Source: a virus. Taken from it: a DNA stretch of 32,844 nt. The notes beneath the pieces are model-generated. The model saw only the letters and a program-made list of their open reading frames with translations, was not told the DNA's origin and searched no databases. The translations under genes were made by a program, and so were the position numbers. The stretch's first letter is position 1; every line of letters begins with the position of its first letter. The stretch lies in UHGV virus genome UHGV-0314203; one strand, given 5' to 3'. Below are positions 1,719 to 13,894 of this stretch, piece after piece.

Positions 1719-2249
1719 TTACCTTAATTTATCAAGCTCTCGTTTATTTCTTTTATCATGTATATCATTAAGAAATAATATATTACTAGCAATGATACTA
1801 AATAACGCTATTATTTGTAGATATACTAATAACGCTGTGATAAAAAATCCAAACTTGCAGAACATGTGCTTATGCAAGGAAATGAAATCCAGATTTGAAA
1901 ATATAGGTTTCGTTAAATTTATTATAACAATAGAAAATATTACAATAGCTGAAATTATAATGGTTTTCACTATCAGCGTAATTCGCTCAATATCTTTTTC
2001 TGTTTCCTTATGATAGTTTATACTAGTTATTGTTGATGGCTTTACAATTGAACTTACAGCTGCAGGGTAAATATATGCAAGCCAAATACCTGCAATAGTG
2101 AAGATCATTGCAGAAATGTTTTGCAAGGTAGATAAAATATCTTTTATATCTGCATACGTATATTTGTCTCCGAACAAATAAGCAATAGCTATAATTGTTA
2201 GGAGAAAACATATGTGCAAAATTTTAGGTTTTATAATCATACTATGCAC
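1719..2249 (-). CDS. small integral membrane protein, about 4 predicted TM helices (cassette A, gene 2)
   Basis: 176 aa with four long hydrophobic segments (e.g. ILHICFLLTIIAIAYLF, FGFFITALLVYLQIIALFSIIASNILFL); very AT-rich; overlaps the upstream gene by 8 nt. Confidence 0.7.
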   Translation of the reverse strand: MHSMIIKPKILHICFLLTIIAIAYLFGDKYTYADIKDILSTLQNISAMIFTIAGIWLAYIYPAAVSSIVKPSTITSINYHKETEKDIERITLIVKTIIISAIVIFSIVIINLTKPIFSNLDFISLHKHMFCKFGFFITALLVYLQIIALFSIIASNILFLNDIHDKRNKRELDKLR

Positions 2250-3444
2250 CTATTTTATGAATCTGCACTGCTGTATCATTATCAGCTTCTGGTTGTTCTA
2301 TTATATCTTCATTTTTAAAACAATTCACCAAATCATTTCTATGAGCTTTTACTACACTCATTAAATATGAAGAAGAGTAATGTTTGTTTCTGTTAGAAAG
2401 GTCAACGTGAATTTCATGGCGATAAACATATTCATCTAACCAAGTAGTTGAACCATTTTTCCCATTTATTTTGAATCCGATGCGTGCGTGATCATTCCCT
2501 ACATTCTCATTGTTATTTTCTGTACCTTCTGAAATAGGATTATGGTTTTCTATATATTCATCGATGAGTTTAGTGAACTCTTCAGGCGTAGGCGTTCCTT
2601 CGACTAATAATTCAACGCGATGTTTTTTTGATAAAATAGGAGAGCTTCTTGAGAAAACATCTCCAACTGCATCAAATAACTTCTGCCATTTTTCCCGTGT
2701 ATCAGGTATGTTTGTTTCTATTACGTCATGGTAAACAATGTGAGTGATTTTTTTACACAGTTCTTCTATGTTTGCTCCACTCGTGATCATCCTTGTTTGT
2801 TTAGTCTGTACTTTAAAAACTAAACTTTCATCATCACCTTGAGAAAAAAGAACACGTTTGTAATGAACGTCTTCAGGTGAGTCATTACGAGGGCGAGTCA
2901 TATCTATGACTTTTTTATTAGGATGCTCCATCCTAAAGTCAACGTATGCTTTAATATAATGACAGAAAAGATCTGTATCCGTATTAGAACTTGGGAATCG
3001 TATGGATGCAATTTTGTTATACTCTGGAATTACCCAATAGTAGCAAGGTACGCCCCAGATATATTTACCGCCACCTTGAGTATCAGAGGCGGATACAACA
3101 TTATCTGAAGTGCCGTCAATCTTACTTTCAGCATCTATACCTTGAATATTTCCAGAGTTATCACCAAGCGTTTTCCAGATAACAAATAGATAATCTCCTG
3201 TCGTACTGTCATATGAAATATTTTTACAGTATGCTTTTGTTCTTCTATTATTATCCTTTCCCCATGGAACAGATTGTTCAACTGTTCTTGAACAGATCCA
3301 GCTATATAAGTTACACAGAACATGGGATAAGTTCTTTTCGACTAATTCCGGCGATTTGCCTTGTCGTATTTTATAAAGGCCAAACATTTCTAAATCAAAA
3401 AATGTTATAATGCCGCGTTCAGTTTTAAAGTTGGTTTTACTCAT
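2242..3444 (-). CDS. hypothetical 400-aa protein, no recognisable catalytic motif (cassette A, gene 1)
   Basis: Long ORF in AT-rich DNA, same strand as cI and int, 80 bp downstream of the cI stop; Asn/Asp/Lys-rich composition unlike the phage backbone. Confidence 0.7.
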   Translation of the reverse strand: MSKTNFKTERGIITFFDLEMFGLYKIRQGKSPELVEKNLSHVLCNLYSWICSRTVEQSVPWGKDNNRRTKAYCKNISYDSTTGDYLFVIWKTLGDNSGNIQGIDAESKIDGTSDNVVSASDTQGGGKYIWGVPCYYWVIPEYNKIASIRFPSSNTDTDLFCHYIKAYVDFRMEHPNKKVIDMTRPRNDSPEDVHYKRVLFSQGDDESLVFKVQTKQTRMITSGANIEELCKKITHIVYHDVIETNIPDTREKWQKLFDAVGDVFSRSSPILSKKHRVELLVEGTPTPEEFTKLIDEYIENHNPISEGTENNNENVGNDHARIGFKINGKNGSTTWLDEYVYRHEIHVDLSNRNKHYSSSYLMSVVKAHRNDLVNCFKNEDIIEQPEADNDTAVQIHKIGA

Positions 3445-3524: not shown

Positions 3525-4406
3525 TTAATTCGAAATGATTGTGCTTCTTATGCATGCAACTACCTCGATATCAGAAAATGCACATTCAAAGTAAGTTTCT
3601 TTACTTCTGATATTTATCATACCTTTAGGTAGCCTAGTAATTTGTCTGACGGAATAGGTTCCATCAATATTAATTAACCAGTATCCATCTAATACATCAG
3701 AAAATTTCTGATCACAGATGTATGCCACTAAACCATCCTGAACGACAATTGGTGCTGAAAGATTAGCGGGTAAAAATGACGAATCGAAAATATATGAGCC
3801 ACTCTCAACCATTTTACCTGCATTGAGATGAAATTTAGGCAGTTCTTTTACCGATGTTGTGAGAGCATTGTGCTCGCTGCCTTGTCCAGTGGCTAGCCAT
3901 AAAAGAGAATTTCCTGTTTCCAACGAACATTTTATGATCCAATCAGCCGGGAATGTGTCTCGCAAATATCTATTTGCCATAGTGCTTTTAGATACATTCA
4001 GATGGTCGGCAAGTTCCTGTCTTGTTTTAAAGCCATACGCTTTCATTAGCCTGTCTATTGCATCACGTCCGCCTGAGTCCAAATTCAGATCGTTCCCAAT
4101 TGGGGACTTCAGGGTGGTGGCTTGGGAAGCGTGCTGAACCTTTGATGCAGTTGCCTTTGACATAACCGGAGCCTCAGTACTCTGAGGGAATGGTACGCCT
4201 TTTCCGAATGAGAGCCACTCGATAGATGCACCCGTTTCAATTGCACACTGAATTACCCAGTCAGCAGGAAATACGTCACGCATCCAGCGCGTGCCCATAG
4301 TGCTTGCAGATACGTTGAACTGTTCGCACAGAGCTTGCCTTGTCTTGAATCCATACGCTTCAAGCATGCGCGTTATGACTGCTTGTCCTCCGTTTTTGAA
4401 ATTCAT
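3525..4406 (-). CDS. cI: phage 186 CI-type immunity repressor with a tandemly duplicated N-terminal HTH domain
   Basis: 293 aa; two copies of an about 60-aa unit (…MLEAYGFKTRQALCEQFNVSASTMGTRWMRDVFPADWVIQCAIETGASIEWL… and …LMKAYGFKTRQELADHLNVSKSTMANRYLRDTFPADWIIKCSLETGNSLLWL…) plus a C-terminal domain; divergent from the early operon. Confidence 0.75.
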   Translation of the reverse strand: MNFKNGGQAVITRMLEAYGFKTRQALCEQFNVSASTMGTRWMRDVFPADWVIQCAIETGASIEWLSFGKGVPFPQSTEAPVMSKATASKVQHASQATTLKSPIGNDLNLDSGGRDAIDRLMKAYGFKTRQELADHLNVSKSTMANRYLRDTFPADWIIKCSLETGNSLLWLATGQGSEHNALTTSVKELPKFHLNAGKMVESGSYIFDSSFLPANLSAPIVVQDGLVAYICDQKFSDVLDGYWLINIDGTYSVRQITRLPKGMINIRSKETYFECAFSDIEVVACIRSTIISN

Positions 4407-4432
4407 TTATTACGCCTTTGAGTAATTTTTGG

Positions 4433-4461
4433 TTGACACTTCTCAAATGAAGAATTAGTGT
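4433..4461 (+). promoter_or_regulatory. sigma70-like early lytic promoter: TTGACA (4433-4438), 17-nt spacer, TAGTGT (4456-4461)
   Basis: Consensus -35 with a plausible -10, in the cI/early divergent intergenic region, oriented toward the Apl/Cox-like gene. Confidence 0.45.
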
Positions 4462-4530
4462 GTGCGAAAGTGAACTGAACAGGATTAATCACCAGTTACC
4501 ACACATCTTGTTAAACGAGGAATCTTGCAT

Positions 4531-4753
4531 CATGGCTCCACATATTTCAATCACCTTAGCTGTCCCATCTGTTTCTATTGAGAAATACAGTGAACTGACT
4601 GGGTTATCTATCGATACTATCAATGACATGCTGGCTGATGGACGCCTTATTCGCCATCGTCTCCGTAAAGATAAAAAGCGAGAAAAGGTAATGATCAATA
4701 TCGCAGCAATGACCGTTGATGCGCTCTCTGAATGCAATTTGAGTATTAACTAG
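4531..4753 (+). CDS. small Apl/Cox-like excisionase-regulator candidate
   Basis: 74 aa from ATG 4531 with GAGGA 10 nt upstream; first gene of the rightward operon, divergent from cI, as for 186 apl / P2 cox; sequence-level assignment is weak. Confidence 0.45.
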
Positions 4754-4785
4754 TTCCATTTTGGGATACATCAGGGGTGTCGACT

Positions 4786-5295
4786 ATGTTTGATTACCAA
4801 GTTTCCAAACATCCACATTTTGATGAAGCCTGTCGAGTATTCGCACTGCGCCACAACCTGGTGCAACTGGCAGAACGTGCAGGCATGAATGTGCAGATTC
4901 TGCGGAACAAGCTGAACCCAGCTCAACCTCATTTATTAACCGCACCAGAAATCTGGCTGCTTACCGATCTGACTGAAGATTCAACGCTTGTAGACGGTTT
5001 TCTGGCACAGATTCATTGTCTGCCATGTGTACCGATTAATGAGGTGGCAAAAGAGAAACTGCCACATTACGTCATGAGTGCAACCGCAGAGATCGGGCGT
5101 GTTGCTGCAGGTGCGGTATCTGGCGATGTAAAAACCAGTGCAGGTCGTCGTGATGCCATCAGCAGCATTAACTCTGTAACACGACTGATGGCGTTGGCTG
5201 CTGTTTCATTGCAGGCCCGTTTACAGGCTAACCCTGCGATGGCGAGTGCAGTTGATACCGTGACTGGCCTCGGTGCTTCATTCGGTTTGCTGTGA
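4786..5295 (+). CDS. cII: phage 186 CII-like regulatory protein
   Basis: About 169 aa from ATG 4786 ([24 protein letters not shown]…); size and N-terminus match my recollection of 186 CII; position after the apl-like gene. Confidence 0.65.
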
Positions 5296-5302
5296 GGTGC
5301 TT

Positions 5303-5599
5303 ATGCTGACGAAAGAACCATCATTTGCATCGCTGCTGGTAAAACAAAGCCCGGCAATGCACTACGGTCACGGCTGGATCACGGGTGAGGATGGAAAACG
5401 CTGGCATCCATGTCATTCACAAGATGAATTGCTGTCTGAATTGACCACGAGGAAACGGAGAAAGTCCAAATGTATGCGGCAGAAAGTGAAGTGGTTTATC
5501 AGTTTCGTTACAGAGGGGAGAGTTATTCAGTACCTGAAGATGATTTGCTCTGTTGCTATCCGTCATTGTCGGGCGATGGCAGTTACTTTTTCACGTTAA
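5303..5599 (+). CDS. hypothetical small protein; 3' extent uncertain, overlaps the next ORF in another frame
   Basis: ATG 5303 within ORF-track frame 5273-5599; the C-terminal third is low-complexity and may not be translated. Confidence 0.3.
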   Translation: MLTKEPSFASLLVKQSPAMHYGHGWITGEDGKRWHPCHSQDELLSELTTRKRRKSKCMRQKVKWFISFVTEGRVIQYLKMICSVAIRHCRAMAVTFSR

Positions 5600-10572: not shown

Positions 10573-10596
10573 GCCCGCCAGAACTGGCGGGCTTTT
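10573..10596 (+). terminator. rho-independent terminator (gcccgccag / ctggcgggc stem, then TTTT)
   Basis: Perfect inverted repeat followed by a T-run, downstream of the DinI-like gene. Confidence 0.6.
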
Positions 10597-10687: not shown

Positions 10688-10717
10688 TTGTTAAATATGA
10701 TGTTTCACAATTAGAAT
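10688..10717 (+). promoter_or_regulatory. sigma70-like promoter for cassette B: TTGTTA, 18-nt spacer, TAGAAT
   Basis: Read in sequence about 30 nt upstream of the first cassette gene; spacer length is at the upper limit. Confidence 0.35.
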
Positions 10718-10746: not shown

Positions 10747-10929
10747 ATGGAATACTTAAGCGAAATCATTAGTTTTTTGGCAGGGGCGGGTATCAGTTGG
10801 GCTATTACTTTCAATGTGTATAATTACAAAGTAAAGCAAATTTGTATGAACCAAAGTTCTCCCATTCAAAATGGAAATACAGTGACAAACGGAAGCATTG
10901 TCGGTAGAGATCAGACTAATTCTCACTAA
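10747..10929 (+). CDS. small single-TM protein (60 aa) ending in an NGSIVGxxQTN motif (cassette B, gene 1)
   Basis: ATG 10747 with GGAGG upstream; hydrophobic IISFLAGAGISWAITFNVY; the C-terminal motif recurs at the start of the next ORF. Confidence 0.5.
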   Translation: MEYLSEIISFLAGAGISWAITFNVYNYKVKQICMNQSSPIQNGNTVTNGSIVGRDQTNSH

Positions 10930-10942
10930 GGGAGTGATTGGT

Positions 10943-11509
10943 GTGTTTAGTAAACAGGAGCAATCAGGTAATAGAGTAAGAAATGGGAGTATTGTTGGAG
11001 GGAGTCAAACAAACCACATTACCAATATAGTTCGTAGTAGTAATCGAACTTTAGAGCGTTTGTACCAAAAGTTCTCTCAAGAAGATGGAACTATGGGGGG
11101 GCAGGATTTTTGTGATAAGTTAAAGCACTATTTAGCCTCGGATACCAATCCAGATATAAGAGATTTAGCTACAAAGCTAACTGATAGTGATAGAACTGAA
11201 TTAATTTACTTTGCAACTGCTCTTAAAGAGCAAGCCCTCAAGGCGATAATGAAGTGCCAATCTTCCAAAACCGCACAAGAAATATATGCGTTTATTCTTG
11301 ATAAAATTCATGCTGATTTTATGCTCAAAATTATACCTCTTATTCAGAAGGATGAGGACCGAGTAATTGTTGATGAAAAAATTTCATTGGTATTAGAAAA
11401 TATTAGTGAAATGTTGGGCGATAATTTGTTAAACTTATCCGAAAAGGATCTTTTGGGACTGTTGTATTTTTTAGGCGGAAATTGTTATATAAGGTGGGAT
11501 AAATGTTAG
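10943..11509 (+). CDS. hypothetical mostly alpha-helical protein (about 188 aa; cassette B, gene 2)
   Basis: GTG 10943 with AAGGGAG 8 nt upstream (the ORF track starts it at TTG 10898); N-terminus repeats the NGSIVGxxQTN motif; stop overlaps the next start. Confidence 0.55.
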   Translation: MFSKQEQSGNRVRNGSIVGGSQTNHITNIVRSSNRTLERLYQKFSQEDGTMGGQDFCDKLKHYLASDTNPDIRDLATKLTDSDRTELIYFATALKEQALKAIMKCQSSKTAQEIYAFILDKIHADFMLKIIPLIQKDEDRVIVDEKISLVLENISEMLGDNLLNLSEKDLLGLLYFLGGNCYIRWDKC

Positions 11510-12003
11510 TTTATCATCCAGCATATGATGCCTATCATTGTCTATTTAGAATGATGGCAATTATGGAAAATACAAATCGGCTTGAGATTGATAAGCTTAA
11601 AATATTGGATTTTTACATTTTATTTCCTGCGTTATTAAGTGAAGTGAAAATGCCGAGAGAATTTATTAAAATTAAAAAAACAGCAAAGCTACATCATAAT
11701 GAATATCATGATCCATTGAGTCCAAGGATTATTTTCAAGGAAATGCGTCAAATACAGGATGCAGCACTAAAATGTATGCTTGCGACTGGTTATATTGATT
11801 CTGATGATTTCAGCAATGGTTTTGTCTCAAGAACAAATAAACAATTACCACTGAACCTAGCCTTAGAAATGGGCGTTTTTTTAGAGCGCAAAGAACCGTT
11901 TTCATCTTTCATTACACAAAAGATGGCTAAATTTCATCTGACTGGACCTGATGGATTGAAGGCTAGAACTAAACTTATGGAGTATAGATATGACACTTAT
12001 TAA
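11503..12003 (+). CDS. hypothetical protein (166 aa; cassette B, gene 3)
   Basis: ATG 11503 with AAGGTGGG upstream; overlaps gene 2 by 7 nt and gene 4 by 14 nt (translational coupling). Confidence 0.65.
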   Translation: MLVYHPAYDAYHCLFRMMAIMENTNRLEIDKLKILDFYILFPALLSEVKMPREFIKIKKTAKLHHNEYHDPLSPRIIFKEMRQIQDAALKCMLATGYIDSDDFSNGFVSRTNKQLPLNLALEMGVFLERKEPFSSFITQKMAKFHLTGPDGLKARTKLMEYRYDTY

Positions 12004-13894
12004 GCCTACTCTTATTGTAACCAGATTAACAGTTTTTCAACACGGACATCGTGCATTTGATTGTGAATTCCACAAAGGTGTTAACATTATTCGTGGGCGA
12101 AATAGTTCTGGTAAAACTACAATAATGGATATGCTGGCATTTTCATTGGGAGCTGAAAATATCAGGTGGAAACCACAGGCTTTGAAATGCACTAGAACAA
12201 TCGTTGAAGTGCTTCTCAATAATGAGAAAGCATGCTTTAAACGAGAGATATCTATTGAGCAAATGCGACCTCTTTATATTTATTGGGGAGCGATGGATAA
12301 GGCTTTGAATGCTGGGGAACACGAATGGGAATTATACCCATTCAAGAGAACTGAGAGTAAAATTAGCTTCACCCAAGCTATTTTCAATGCATTATCAATG
12401 CCCTTGGCACAAGGTGCTGGTTCTTCTAATTTGACATTGCATCAGATTTTACGTGTCTTGTATGCAGATCAGCCGTCGTTACATAGTCCAATTTTTCGAT
12501 TTGACAGATTTGATAATGCTCTTACCCGTGAGACGGTAGGTGGATACTTATGTGGTGTTTATAATGATGAGTTGTACAATGCACAACTTTCTTTAAGAGA
12601 TGTTGAGACCGAACTAACAAAGAAAGTTACTGAATTAAAAAGTATCTTTACTGTATTAGGTAGATCTGGACAGGCTCCAGATTTACAAGGTATTGATGAG
12701 AAAATAAAGCATCTAAATAAATTGAGAGCTATTGAGAATGTAAAACTAACAAATAGAGCTATTATAACTAATGAAGAAGGGGCTGATTCTGAAAAACGAA
12801 TGGGTACTATCAGGGAGGAACTCAATGAAGCTAAAAGGAAATTATCTTCCCTAAAAGATAAAATCCAATCTTTGGATTTTGAAATTTCAGATTCTGATAT
12901 GTTTATATCAGAATTAAATGAGCGGCTAAAAAACTTAGAACAGTCTGGAGAAACGCGTGCTATATTTGATAGTATGAATTTTGATTTTTGCCCTAGTTGT
13001 CTTTCCAAAATAGATAAGGCTCATAATGATCATGTTTGTCATCTATGTAAAGTGGAACAATTAGATGATAAAGCTGAAAATCAGTTATTAAGAATGAAAA
13101 ATGAATTAACTCTTCAAATCAAAGAATCTCTTCAATTAATGGATAGAAGAAAAGAAGAGTTGGTAAGATTAAAGCGAGATGTTCCTTTAGCTGAGAGTGA
13201 ATTAAAAAGGCTTGAACAGGATTATTTCAAAGAGTCACACTATTGGTCTTCACCGCAAGAGTTAGCTGTAGGTAAAATATATAGGGAAATTGGACGGCTT
13301 GATGAAGAAATAAAAAGAGCTTATGAAGATAAGAAGCTTATTGTTGTTATTAATGAACTTCAAGAGCGTCGCGATGAACTTCAGGCGGAAAAAAATAGAC
13401 TTGATGATCTTATTGAACTTTATGAAGAAAAAGAGGAAGTTCTTAAAGATAAAATTTATGCTTCAGTGAGCTCAATAGCACAAGAGCTTTTACAAGAAGA
13501 TTTGCCTTTGCAAAAAGAGTTTATGTCTCCTGAAAGTGTGGAGTTTAGTTTTACTGATAATAGCGTTTATGTGAATGGTAGTAAGAACTTTTCTGAAAGT
13601 TCAGCTGTAGTATTAAGGCATATATTCCATTTGGCACTACTTTCAGCAAGTATAGAGAACCACTCAATGCGACTTCCAAGATTTATGATGTTAGATGGGA
13701 TCGACGATGGTGGAATGGAAAAAGAACGGAGTCACAATTTACAGGAAATAATAATTGATGAGTGCTCACGTTATGAACATGATTATCAGTTGATATTTGC
13801 AACATCTGAAATAAATCCCAAATACAGTGAGAGTGAATATATTGTTGGTGAGTATTATTCGCCAGATAATTATTCATTGAAAATAATTGAGTGA
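11990..13894 (+). CDS. SMC/Rad50/RecF-like ABC ATPase with a long coiled coil and paired CxxC motifs (cassette B, gene 4)
   Basis: 634 aa; N-terminal Walker A GRNSSGKTT in an SMC_N-like context; central Glu/Lys/Leu-rich coiled coil; CPSC-x14-CHLC at 12989-13048; C-terminal signature-like FSESS and Walker-B-like FMMLDGIDD. Confidence 0.8.
   Translation: MTLIKPTLIVTRLTVFQHGHRAFDCEFHKGVNIIRGRNSSGKTTIMDMLAFSLGAENIRWKPQALKCTRTIVEVLLNNEKACFKREISIEQMRPLYIYWGAMDKALNAGEHEWELYPFKRTESKISFTQAIFNALSMPLAQGAGSSNLTLHQILRVLYADQPSLHSPIFRFDRFDNALTRETVGGYLCGVYNDELYNAQLSLRDVETELTKKVTELKSIFTVLGRSGQAPDLQGIDEKIKHLNKLRAIENVKLTNRAIITNEEGADSEKRMGTIREELNEAKRKLSSLKDKIQSLDFEISDSDMFISELNERLKNLEQSGETRAIFDSMNFDFCPSCLSKIDKAHNDHVCHLCKVEQLDDKAENQLLRMKNELTLQIKESLQLMDRRKEELVRLKRDVPLAESELKRLEQDYFKESHYWSSPQELAVGKIYREIGRLDEEIKRAYEDKKLIVVINELQERRDELQAEKNRLDDLIELYEEKEEVLKDKIYASVSSIAQELLQEDLPLQKEFMSPESVEFSFTDNSVYVNGSKNFSESSAVVLRHIFHLALLSASIENHSMRLPRFMMLDGIDDGGMEKERSHNLQEIIIDECSRYEHDYQLIFATSEINPKYSESEYIVGEYYSPDNYSLKIIE

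Follow-up and report, generated by a model that had tools for sequence, protein, structure and literature searches.

Two neighbouring genes of a Lamassu/ABC-3C cassette in the UHGV virus genome UHGV-0314203 carry the same short peptide motif, one at the C-terminus of its product and the other at the N-terminus. The DNA analysed, one strand of 32,844 nucleotides numbered from its first letter, is called the window below; the genes, motif copies, protein domain and candidate promoter of the cassette all lie on its + strand. Four genes follow each other in the cassette and encode, in this order, a small peptide (gene 1), a CTD9 protein (gene 2), the LmuC-like middle component 5 (MC5; gene 3) and an LmuB-like ATPase (gene 4). 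We are confident that genes 1 and 2 are two genuine genes and that their shared motif is functionally constrained. With considerably less assurance, we lean towards the view that this motif is a homotypic recruiting tag, which would couple the putatively membrane-active peptide of gene 1 to the released and oligomerised CTD9 adaptor encoded by gene 2.

Two copies of one motif at the junction of genes 1 and 2

Gene 1 (10747-10929) encodes a product of 60 amino acids, MEYLSEIISFLAGAGISWAITFNVYNYKVKQICMNQSSPIQNGNTVTNGSIVGRDQTNSH. Its most likely start is the ATG at 10747, preceded by a GGAGG ribosome-binding site, and its stop is the TAA at 10927-10929. The peptide consists of an N-terminal hydrophobic helix (MEYLSEIISFLAGAGISWAITFNVY), a basic linker and, at the C-terminus, the shared motif, so that the product ends in ...QNGNTVTNGSIVGRDQTNSH*. 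Gene 2 (10943-11509) lies in frame +1 relative to gene 1 and encodes an LmuA-like ABC-3C component of 188 amino acids, in which the N-terminal motif is followed by an all-helical CTD9 domain. The longest open reading frame (ORF) of gene 2 runs from a TTG at 10898; the RefSeq start in the 99.7%-identical locus of E. coli AR_0085 corresponds to the GTG at 10943 (188 amino acids), 8 nucleotides after GGGAG at 10930-10934, and translation from this codon begins MFSKQEQSGNRVRNGSIVGGSQTNHITN. At the junction (10928-10945), the TAA of gene 1 (10927-10929) overlaps a Shine-Dalgarno-like AAGGGAG (10928-10934), with the GTG of gene 2 (10943) 8 nucleotides further on, a layout that suggests translational coupling of the two genes.

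The first motif copy, QNGNTVTNGSIVGRDQTN (10867-10920), forms the C-terminal tail of gene 1 and the second, QSGNRVRNGSIVGGSQTN (10961-11014), the N-terminus of gene 2, where it starts within the first ~10 residues. The first-pass annotation of this DNA had reported a repeated peptide of 11 residues straddling the gene 1 stop codon. Both strings are indeed present, and the resemblance extends beyond them to 18 residues, QxGNxVxNGSIVGxxQTN, with 13 of 18 identical between the copies. The pair reaches a local BLOSUM62 score of 64, compared with 24 +/- 4.8 and a maximum of 57 in 20000 composition-preserving shuffles. At the DNA level, 35 of 54 bases are identical, distributed over codon positions 1, 2 and 3 as 15/18, 14/18 and 6/18, which bears out the earlier remark that the repeat has diverged and is not a recent assembly duplication. 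Since third codon positions agree at 6/18 compared with 15/18 and 14/18 for the other two, the pair is best read as an old duplication kept by selection on the peptide and not as an assembly artefact. It is plausible that both copies descend from one ancestral sequence; such a descent would be ancient, at a date that cannot be fixed here. Copy 1 is invariant or nearly so among the enterobacterial homologues of gene 1, and an alignment shows copy 2 to be kept in gene 2 homologues down to about 48% identity.

Conservation and co-variation of the motif pair in related loci

Related loci were collected by scanning one genome per species, which yielded 46 loci from Enterobacterales, Pseudomonas, Xanthomonadales, many Burkholderiales, Rhizobiales/Rhodobacterales, a Bacteroidota metagenome-assembled genome (MAG) and a Firestonebacteria MAG. 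The ORF upstream of the CTD9 gene was chosen by a profile of the hydrophobic N-terminal part only, so that this choice is independent of the motif. An intact gene for a peptide of 44-72 amino acids stands directly upstream of the CTD9 gene in 42 of the 46 loci, spread over five bacterial lineages. The remaining four comprise one locus with a frameshifted gene 1 (L022), two cut by contig ends (L029 and L042, the latter still showing the motif) and one in which the CTD9 protein is fused to an enzyme (L044). MC5 lies directly downstream of the CTD9 gene in all 46 loci and LmuB is present in 45, the last one being cut by a contig end.

To compare the two motif copies, the loci were dereplicated at under 80% CTD identity, and in the resulting 33 loci the last 30 amino acids of gene 1 were scored against the N-terminal 42 amino acids of gene 2, all pairs being treated alike. 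The mean score was 56.3 for pairs from the same locus, 39.4 for pairs from different loci and 19.4 for composition-shuffled controls; the same-locus excess corresponds to z = 9.3, and none of 20000 permutations reached the observed mean. At least six distinct motif variants are mirrored on both genes. NGSIVG occurs on both in Enterobacterales, GHMSGRDVNV on gene 1 is matched by GHMGGRDVNV on gene 2 in Bradyrhizobium, GNLSGRDVN by GNLAGRDVN in Paracoccus, GGDIIVGNK by GEDIVVGIK in Acidovorax and Variovorax, and QKNIQARGDVVGGNKTTTIN by QKGIRADGDVVAGDKHTTIN in Comamonas; in the loci L028 and L037, GGDIAGRDV on gene 1 is accompanied by GGDFAGRDI and GGDIAGRDV on gene 2. Single columns behave in the same way, with an agreement of 0.84 within loci against 0.55 across loci for the G/R column and of 0.90 against 0.63 for the D/S/H column, in an alignment that is slightly biased to same-locus pairs; the all-pairs permutation is the unbiased test.

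Within a locus, the shared motif has a mean length of about 20 amino acids and an identity of 54%, and the consensus over the family is (V/T)(S/T)QxxNx(A/V)xGGD(I/L)(V/A)G(G/R)(D/N). Its composition is marked by G (x3.1), N (x3.5) and V (x1.8), with L at x0.1 and P at about 0; Q (x1.3), I (x0.9) and K (x1.1) are close to even. At codon positions 1, 2 and 3, the motif pairs of 32 loci have nucleotide identities of 0.66, 0.70 and 0.38. Gene conversion was considered as a source of the within-locus similarity and rejected, given that in these 32 loci identical motif residues use the same codon in 40% of cases, compared with 44% expected from codon usage.

Possible role of the shared motif

The peptide of gene 1 has a regular build across loci. 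Its N-terminus reads M-(D/E)-(Y/W), with D or E at position 2 in 37 of 43 loci as counted from the listing, and is followed by a helix of ~20 residues that has small-xxx-small patterns, such as FIAGLGAGW, or is Ala-rich in Betaproteobacteria. After the helix come a Ser/Arg/Lys-rich linker, the motif, 2-8 residues and the stop. Among membrane-disrupting effectors, small peptides with a single helix and small-xxx-small patterns are common. Because of the positive-inside rule, by which the basic tail of gene 1 should face the cytoplasm, this tail is predicted to be cytoplasmic and hence in the same compartment as the gene 2 product.

With CTD9, gene 2 possesses the C-terminal domain by which Lamassu effectors dock and oligomerise. 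The slot that the motif occupies in gene 2 is filled in other Lamassu effectors by a nuclease, lipase, protease, SIR2 or similar domain. In the published Lamassu structures, LmuB2-LmuC keeps LmuA monomeric by sequestering its C-terminal domain, and the N-terminal part is free of contacts (10.1101/2025.03.14.643221). Sensing of DNA ends frees LmuA, whose C-terminal domains oligomerise into the active form, and larger cyclic oligomers have been predicted for the CTD8/CTD9 lipase effectors (same source). In the mechanism that we propose for the cassette, the CTD9 protein would be held at rest as a monomer by LmuB2-LmuC. Upon sensing of phage DNA structures by LmuB, it would be released and its CTD9 domains would oligomerise. 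This could gather the N-terminal motifs into a beta-structured nucleus, which would capture, and possibly template, the motif of the peptide. The gene 1 helices clustered in this way would then breach the inner membrane and abort the infection. We infer here the binding of the gene 1 motif to that of gene 2, the direction of signalling and the membrane killing by the peptide. The effector of this Lamassu variant appears to be a separately encoded mini-peptide.

AlphaFold2 models were examined for both proteins. For gene 1, a helix is predicted over residues 2-36 with a predicted local distance difference test (pLDDT) score of about 77, and the motif forms short strands at 44-47 (NTVT) and 50-52 (SIV) around an NG turn (pLDDT 52-61). 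For gene 2, residues 1-33 have a pLDDT below 50 and appear disordered in the monomer, the stretch 1-73 as a whole is disordered or short-helical, and the remainder is helical. A Foldseek search of the PDB with the gene 2 model returned noise (E >= 2.8), and neither the gene 2 profile nor genes 3 and 4 gave a significant match in PDB sequence searches.

Several observations weigh against the proposed recruiting role. The permutation test takes no account of the relatedness of the loci, so that fewer than 33 independent co-variation events underlie it. The hydrophobic segment of gene 1 in the window has a Kyte-Doolittle value of about 1.5 over 19 residues, which is moderate compared with 2.0-2.7 in the betaproteobacterial versions, and its constitutive insertion into the membrane is therefore uncertain. 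The models of genes 1 and 2 are of low overall confidence (pLDDT 67 and 60, respectively), and no solved or predicted structure matched. Q, I and K do not show the bias of the motifs of bacterial amyloid signalling sequences (BASS), in which Q and I are raised and K is lowered. Finally, the co-variation would also arise if both copies had one common third partner.

Such a third partner is, among the other functions that could be assigned to the peptide, the one that fares best, although we consider it a good deal less probable than a homotypic tag. Both copies would dock to the same site, be it a groove of LmuB/LmuC or a host or phage protein, and the peptide would act as a competitor or regulator. 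A shared receptor encoded in the cassette would lead one to expect the within-locus co-variation equally well, and MC5 and LmuB are always co-inherited with the pair; the N-terminal part of LmuA, however, has no visible contact with LmuB or LmuC in the solved complexes (10.1101/2025.03.14.643221), and the system would be left without any effector. Moreover, terminal motifs on adjacent gene products are a signature of homotypic signalling pairs.

Somewhat less probable still is a role of the peptide as a membrane anchor or inhibitor, which would hold the CTD9 protein or the Lamassu complex at the inner membrane by means of the shared motif, perhaps for surveillance of incoming DNA; the toxicity would then reside elsewhere, for example in the oligomerised CTD9 protein. 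The N-terminal slot of CTD-bearing proteins is an effector site, occupied by a hydrolase in L044 and by lipases in published systems, and the conserved cassette encodes no other candidate effector; both points speak against a mere anchor. In favour of an anchor are the very small size of the peptide, in which no toxic domain can be recognised, and its hydrophobic helix with basic linker, which fits a simple N-out/C-in topology.

For the homotypic tag that we prefer, a more specific version can be envisaged, in which oligomerised CTD9 adaptors nucleate a cross-beta fold that spreads to the 60-amino-acid membrane peptide in a prion-like, amyloid manner. We regard such templating as a tentative option only. 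If true, it would carry amyloid signalling beyond NOD-like receptors (NLRs) and multicellular bacteria, to unicellular Proteobacteria and to temperate phages, and the executioner would be the smallest seen so far.

Two conserved genes and not one interrupted gene

The first-pass annotation had suggested that genes 1 and 2 derive from a single effector gene, now separated by a frameshift or stop or else expressed by recoding, and had offered a small peptide with a partner as the alternative. The comparison of homologous cassettes speaks for the alternative: the two ORFs are consistently separate, as found in 42 of 46 loci. Relative to gene 1, gene 2 is read in frame 0 in 12 loci, +1 in 8 and +2 in 22, with no conserved recoding site, and gene 1 ends in TAA, TAG or TGA, depending on the locus. 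A separate ATG, GTG or TTG for gene 2 lies at -4 to +12 nucleotides from this stop in most loci, often with an in-frame stop just upstream.

The same picture emerges from the proteins. All 30 close homologues of gene 2 are 171-208 amino acids long and have the motif at the beginning. An exhaustive profile search of 1.84 billion cluster representatives (50% clustering) delimited a CTD9-protein family of 567 members at E <= 1e-3. The best 150 of these 567 representatives are almost all of 180-200 amino acids and mostly start with a motif of this type; where a protein is longer, either its ORF call is over-extended or an unrelated domain sits at its N-terminus, and no fusion of a hydrophobic helix to CTD9 was found among these 150. 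A loose regular expression for the motif matched 72 of 149 representatives, and reading of the N-termini suggests that most carry this motif type. The motif is always located at the extreme C-terminus in gene 1 and, in most of the best 150, at the extreme N-terminus of gene 2. One of the representatives (P0137, 349 amino acids) bears another N-terminal domain of ~170 amino acids on its CTD9.

It is thus very unlikely that genes 1 and 2 represent the two parts of a single effector gene, whether separated by a frameshift or stop, in a pseudogene or through a sequencing error, or joined by programmed frameshifting or readthrough. Some features could be taken in favour of a split: in the window, no stop interrupts the gene 2 frame over the 45 nucleotides before its start, and this frame overlaps the end of gene 1; both genes are in the same frame in 12 related loci, with as little as one stop codon between them; and L022 and L037 have sporadic true frameshifts, in gene 1 and gene 2, respectively. 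As a general explanation, however, it was rejected in view of the two-ORF layout conserved over five lineages, the varying frame, the three stop codons, the start codon of gene 2's own (often ATG) and the lack of a fused protein among the 30 close homologues or the best 150 of 567. Furthermore, only one motif copy would be expected after a simple split, and both copies are under purifying selection. A peptide repeated across a stop codon can therefore mark a functional gene pair and not a broken gene.

The resemblance as a chance match of two low-complexity G/N-rich stretches was likewise rejected and is practically out of the question: the motif is short and compositionally biased, but the window pair scores above all 20000 shuffles (64 against at most 57), the same-locus mean far exceeds that of the composition-shuffled controls (56.3 against 19.4), and the motif is conserved on both sides across the family.

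The two frameshifted loci deserve a separate description. In L037, a MAG, the gene 2 motif (QRDNSAGGDIAGRDV) is out of frame with its own CTD9 part (4917-5080), and in L022 (Ottowia flava) the frame changes within gene 1, between the part for the hydrophobic helix and that for the motif (4660-4960). The frameshifts reflect either errors of assembly or gene copies in decay.

Gene 1 and gene 2 in sequence collections

The small partner gene of this Lamassu subfamily has been systematically missed by annotation. The RefSeq record of the E. coli AR_0085 locus has no coding sequence annotated at gene 1. Searches of a collection of 5.8 billion proteins yielded nine clusters of gene 1 homologues, eight of 60 amino acids and one a fragment of 45, of which none is named and none has a Pfam match. 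No family match was obtained for gene 1 itself or for the motif in Pfam, NCBIfam or padloc, and PHROGs returned families of unknown function alone, gene 1 being entered there as phrog_17975.

In gene 2, the Pfam family CTD9 (PF20285, "C-terminal domain 9 of the ABC-3C systems") is matched at E = 4.3e-30 over profile positions 1-113 of 113, corresponding to residues 74-185 (11162-11497). Residues 1-73 have no Pfam, NCBIfam or padloc family match and no enzymatic effector domain, and the protein as a whole has no padloc or NCBIfam family match. No relative of gene 2 was found in deposited phage genomes, and plasmids gave four distant matches.

Relation to Lamassu and to amyloid-signalling pairs

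Because of its CTD9, MC5 and LmuB family matches, we assign the cassette to the Lamassu/ABC-3C systems. Lamassu systems, which protect against phages or plasmids by abortive infection, have been reported in roughly 10-15% of prokaryotic genomes, and the effectors known for them are enzymes to which the docking domain is fused. The gene order and the families CTD9, MC5 and LmuB are those of Lamassu/ABC-3C (DdmABC), and so is the location in a prophage defence hotspot. Two features set it apart. The LmuA-like gene 2 lacks a fused enzymatic N-terminal domain and has the ~20-amino-acid motif in its place, and an extra, usually unannotated, upstream gene encodes a hydrophobic-helix peptide of 50-70 amino acids with the same motif. 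With LmuB, MC5 and CTD9 present and a fused enzymatic effector absent, the system may be classed as a Lamassu variant. In the published effector lists, as far as consulted, Lamassu effectors comprise nucleases, proteases, hydrolases/lipases, TIR, SIR2, monooxygenase, dehydrogenase and SMEK; a trans-encoded membrane peptide does not figure in the parts of these lists that were consulted.

The ABC-3C systems and the CTD and MC families were reportedly defined by Krishnan et al. in 2020. No paper linking Lamassu with amyloid motifs or with a membrane-peptide effector was found, in a search that did not include this defining paper. The novelty of a trans-encoded, motif-coupled peptide in Lamassu is provisional, since the ABC-3C-defining paper lies outside the literature compared.

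A fused counterpart exists in one of the related loci, L044 from Azospirillum tabaci, in which an alpha/beta-hydrolase (GHSLGG) is fused to CTD9 (3969-5366) and no upstream peptide gene is present.

The layout of genes 1 and 2 resembles that of amyloid-signalling pairs such as the BASS Bell/NLR and fungal HET-S/NWD2 pairs. Motifs of this kind were discovered by their presence at the C-terminus of an effector and the N-terminus of its receptor, the two being encoded by neighbouring collinear genes that overlap or are at most 10 bp apart. In these NLR pairs, the receptor-side motif is nucleated by oligomerisation and then converts its effector-side counterpart. The likenesses are the motif of ~20-25 amino acids at the effector C-terminus and at the neighbour's N-terminus, the adjacent collinear genes with tiny spacers or overlaps, motif pairs that are more alike within loci than across them, and the existence of "all-in-one" enzyme-receptor fusions, represented here by L044. 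Furthermore, an acidic residue at position 2-3 has been noted for the N-terminal helices of Bell, HeLo, MLKL and RPW8; the sole trait that gene 1 has in common with the Bell/HeLo executioners is a hydrophobic helix preceded by an acidic residue at position 2. The published bias of bacterial amyloid signalling motifs and beta-helices is rich in Q/N/G/V/I and poor in K/P/L, with beta propensity (10.1101/2020.01.06.895854). The motif agrees with it in part, G, N and V being raised and L and P lowered, while Q, I and K depart from it.

The differences are nonetheless substantial. The partner is not an NLR/STAND NTPase with an NB-ARC or NACHT domain and repeats but the adaptor of an SMC-like system, gene 2 containing only CTD9 and the NTPase being an SMC-like ABC ATPase encoded two genes downstream. 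Gene 1 is a single helix and not a five-helix Bell or HeLo bundle, with no Pfam match. The hosts are mostly unicellular Proteobacteria, together with a temperate phage, whereas BASS have been reported as specific to multicellular Actinobacteria and Cyanobacteria. By analogy, the pair may work like an amyloid-signalling pair without being a member of that family; the likeness to BASS is one of layout, position and, in part, composition.

In the Alphaproteobacteria, a second partial motif copy is found after a short loop in the CTD9 protein, namely GGRDVNVFAPGGDLHI in L040 and GGKDVYANGGDVNIY in L046, with L042 and L045 being similar. This second copy is reminiscent of the pseudo-repeats of HET-s and BASS1.

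Oligomerised transmembrane (TM) effectors disrupt the inner membrane and thereby cause abortive infection. Disruption of the inner membrane by oligomerised helices would, by analogy, be expected for the gene 1 peptide, as for the TM effectors of the cyclic oligonucleotide-based antiphage signalling system (CBASS) and Thoeris and for holin-like abortive-infection peptides. The CBASS and Thoeris TM effectors, however, are fused to or bind a nucleotide-signal sensor domain, whereas here the coupling would be by a motif that the peptide shares with the adaptor.

Collectively, a Lamassu subfamily comprising hundreds of 50%-identity clusters appears to have outsourced its effector to a mini-peptide. 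If the motif is homotypic, it would supply the missing effector of "effector-less" or "hypothetical" Lamassu systems and provide a compact, swappable adaptor-executioner pair. It would also make it testable whether motif signalling nucleated by oligomerisation, so far tied to NLRs, is general in prokaryotic immunity.

Cassette and prophage setting

Gene 3 (11503-12003) encodes the ABC-3C middle component 5 (LmuC-like), a protein of 166 amino acids that matches Pfam MC5 (PF20291) over its full length at E = 2e-57 and padloc LmuC weakly (E = 9e-4). It overlaps gene 2 by 7 nucleotides and sits between genes 2 and 4 with overlapping stops and starts. Gene 4 (11990-13894) encodes an LmuB-like SMC/Rad50-type ABC ATPase of 634 amino acids, with a padloc LmuB match over residues 5-572 (E = 4.5e-43) and partial SMC/Rad50/AAA_23 matches. 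It has a Walker A motif GRNSSGKT and a zinc-hook-like CPSC...CHLC; LmuB ATPases have a coiled-coil insert and in most cases a zinc hook. In its Walker B motif, FMMLDG, the catalytic Glu is missing, which fits a published LmuB trait, the Lamassu LmuB proteins being poor ATP hydrolysers.

The cassette is located in a P2-like prophage, with replication endonuclease/DinI-like genes on one side and the portal gene on the other. With a GC content of 34.5%, compared with 50% for the window, it is regarded as cargo. Its location in a prophage hotspot and its low GC content are circumstantial indications of an anti-phage role.

Upstream of gene 1, a candidate sigma-70 promoter with a weak consensus match (TTGTTA-18-TAGAAT) was found at 10688-10717; the number of sigma-70-like sites in the region is not above shuffle expectation. 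A GC-rich hairpin followed by TTTT (10573-10596, GCCCGCC-AGAACT-GGCGGGC) stands after the DinI-like gene and before the cassette. The consensus terminator scan did not list this hairpin, its T run being short, but it looks like an intrinsic terminator that would divide the phage early genes from the cargo.

A second cargo cassette, with a GC content of 32.7%, is present at 1719-3444 on the - strand of the window, in the other hotspot of the P2-like prophage, between the integrase (607-1638) and the CI repressor (3525-4406). Its two ORFs, of 176 and 400 amino acids, have no Pfam match and correspond to the padloc candidate system PDC-M18B (E = 6e-24) and PDC-M18A (E = 1e-35).

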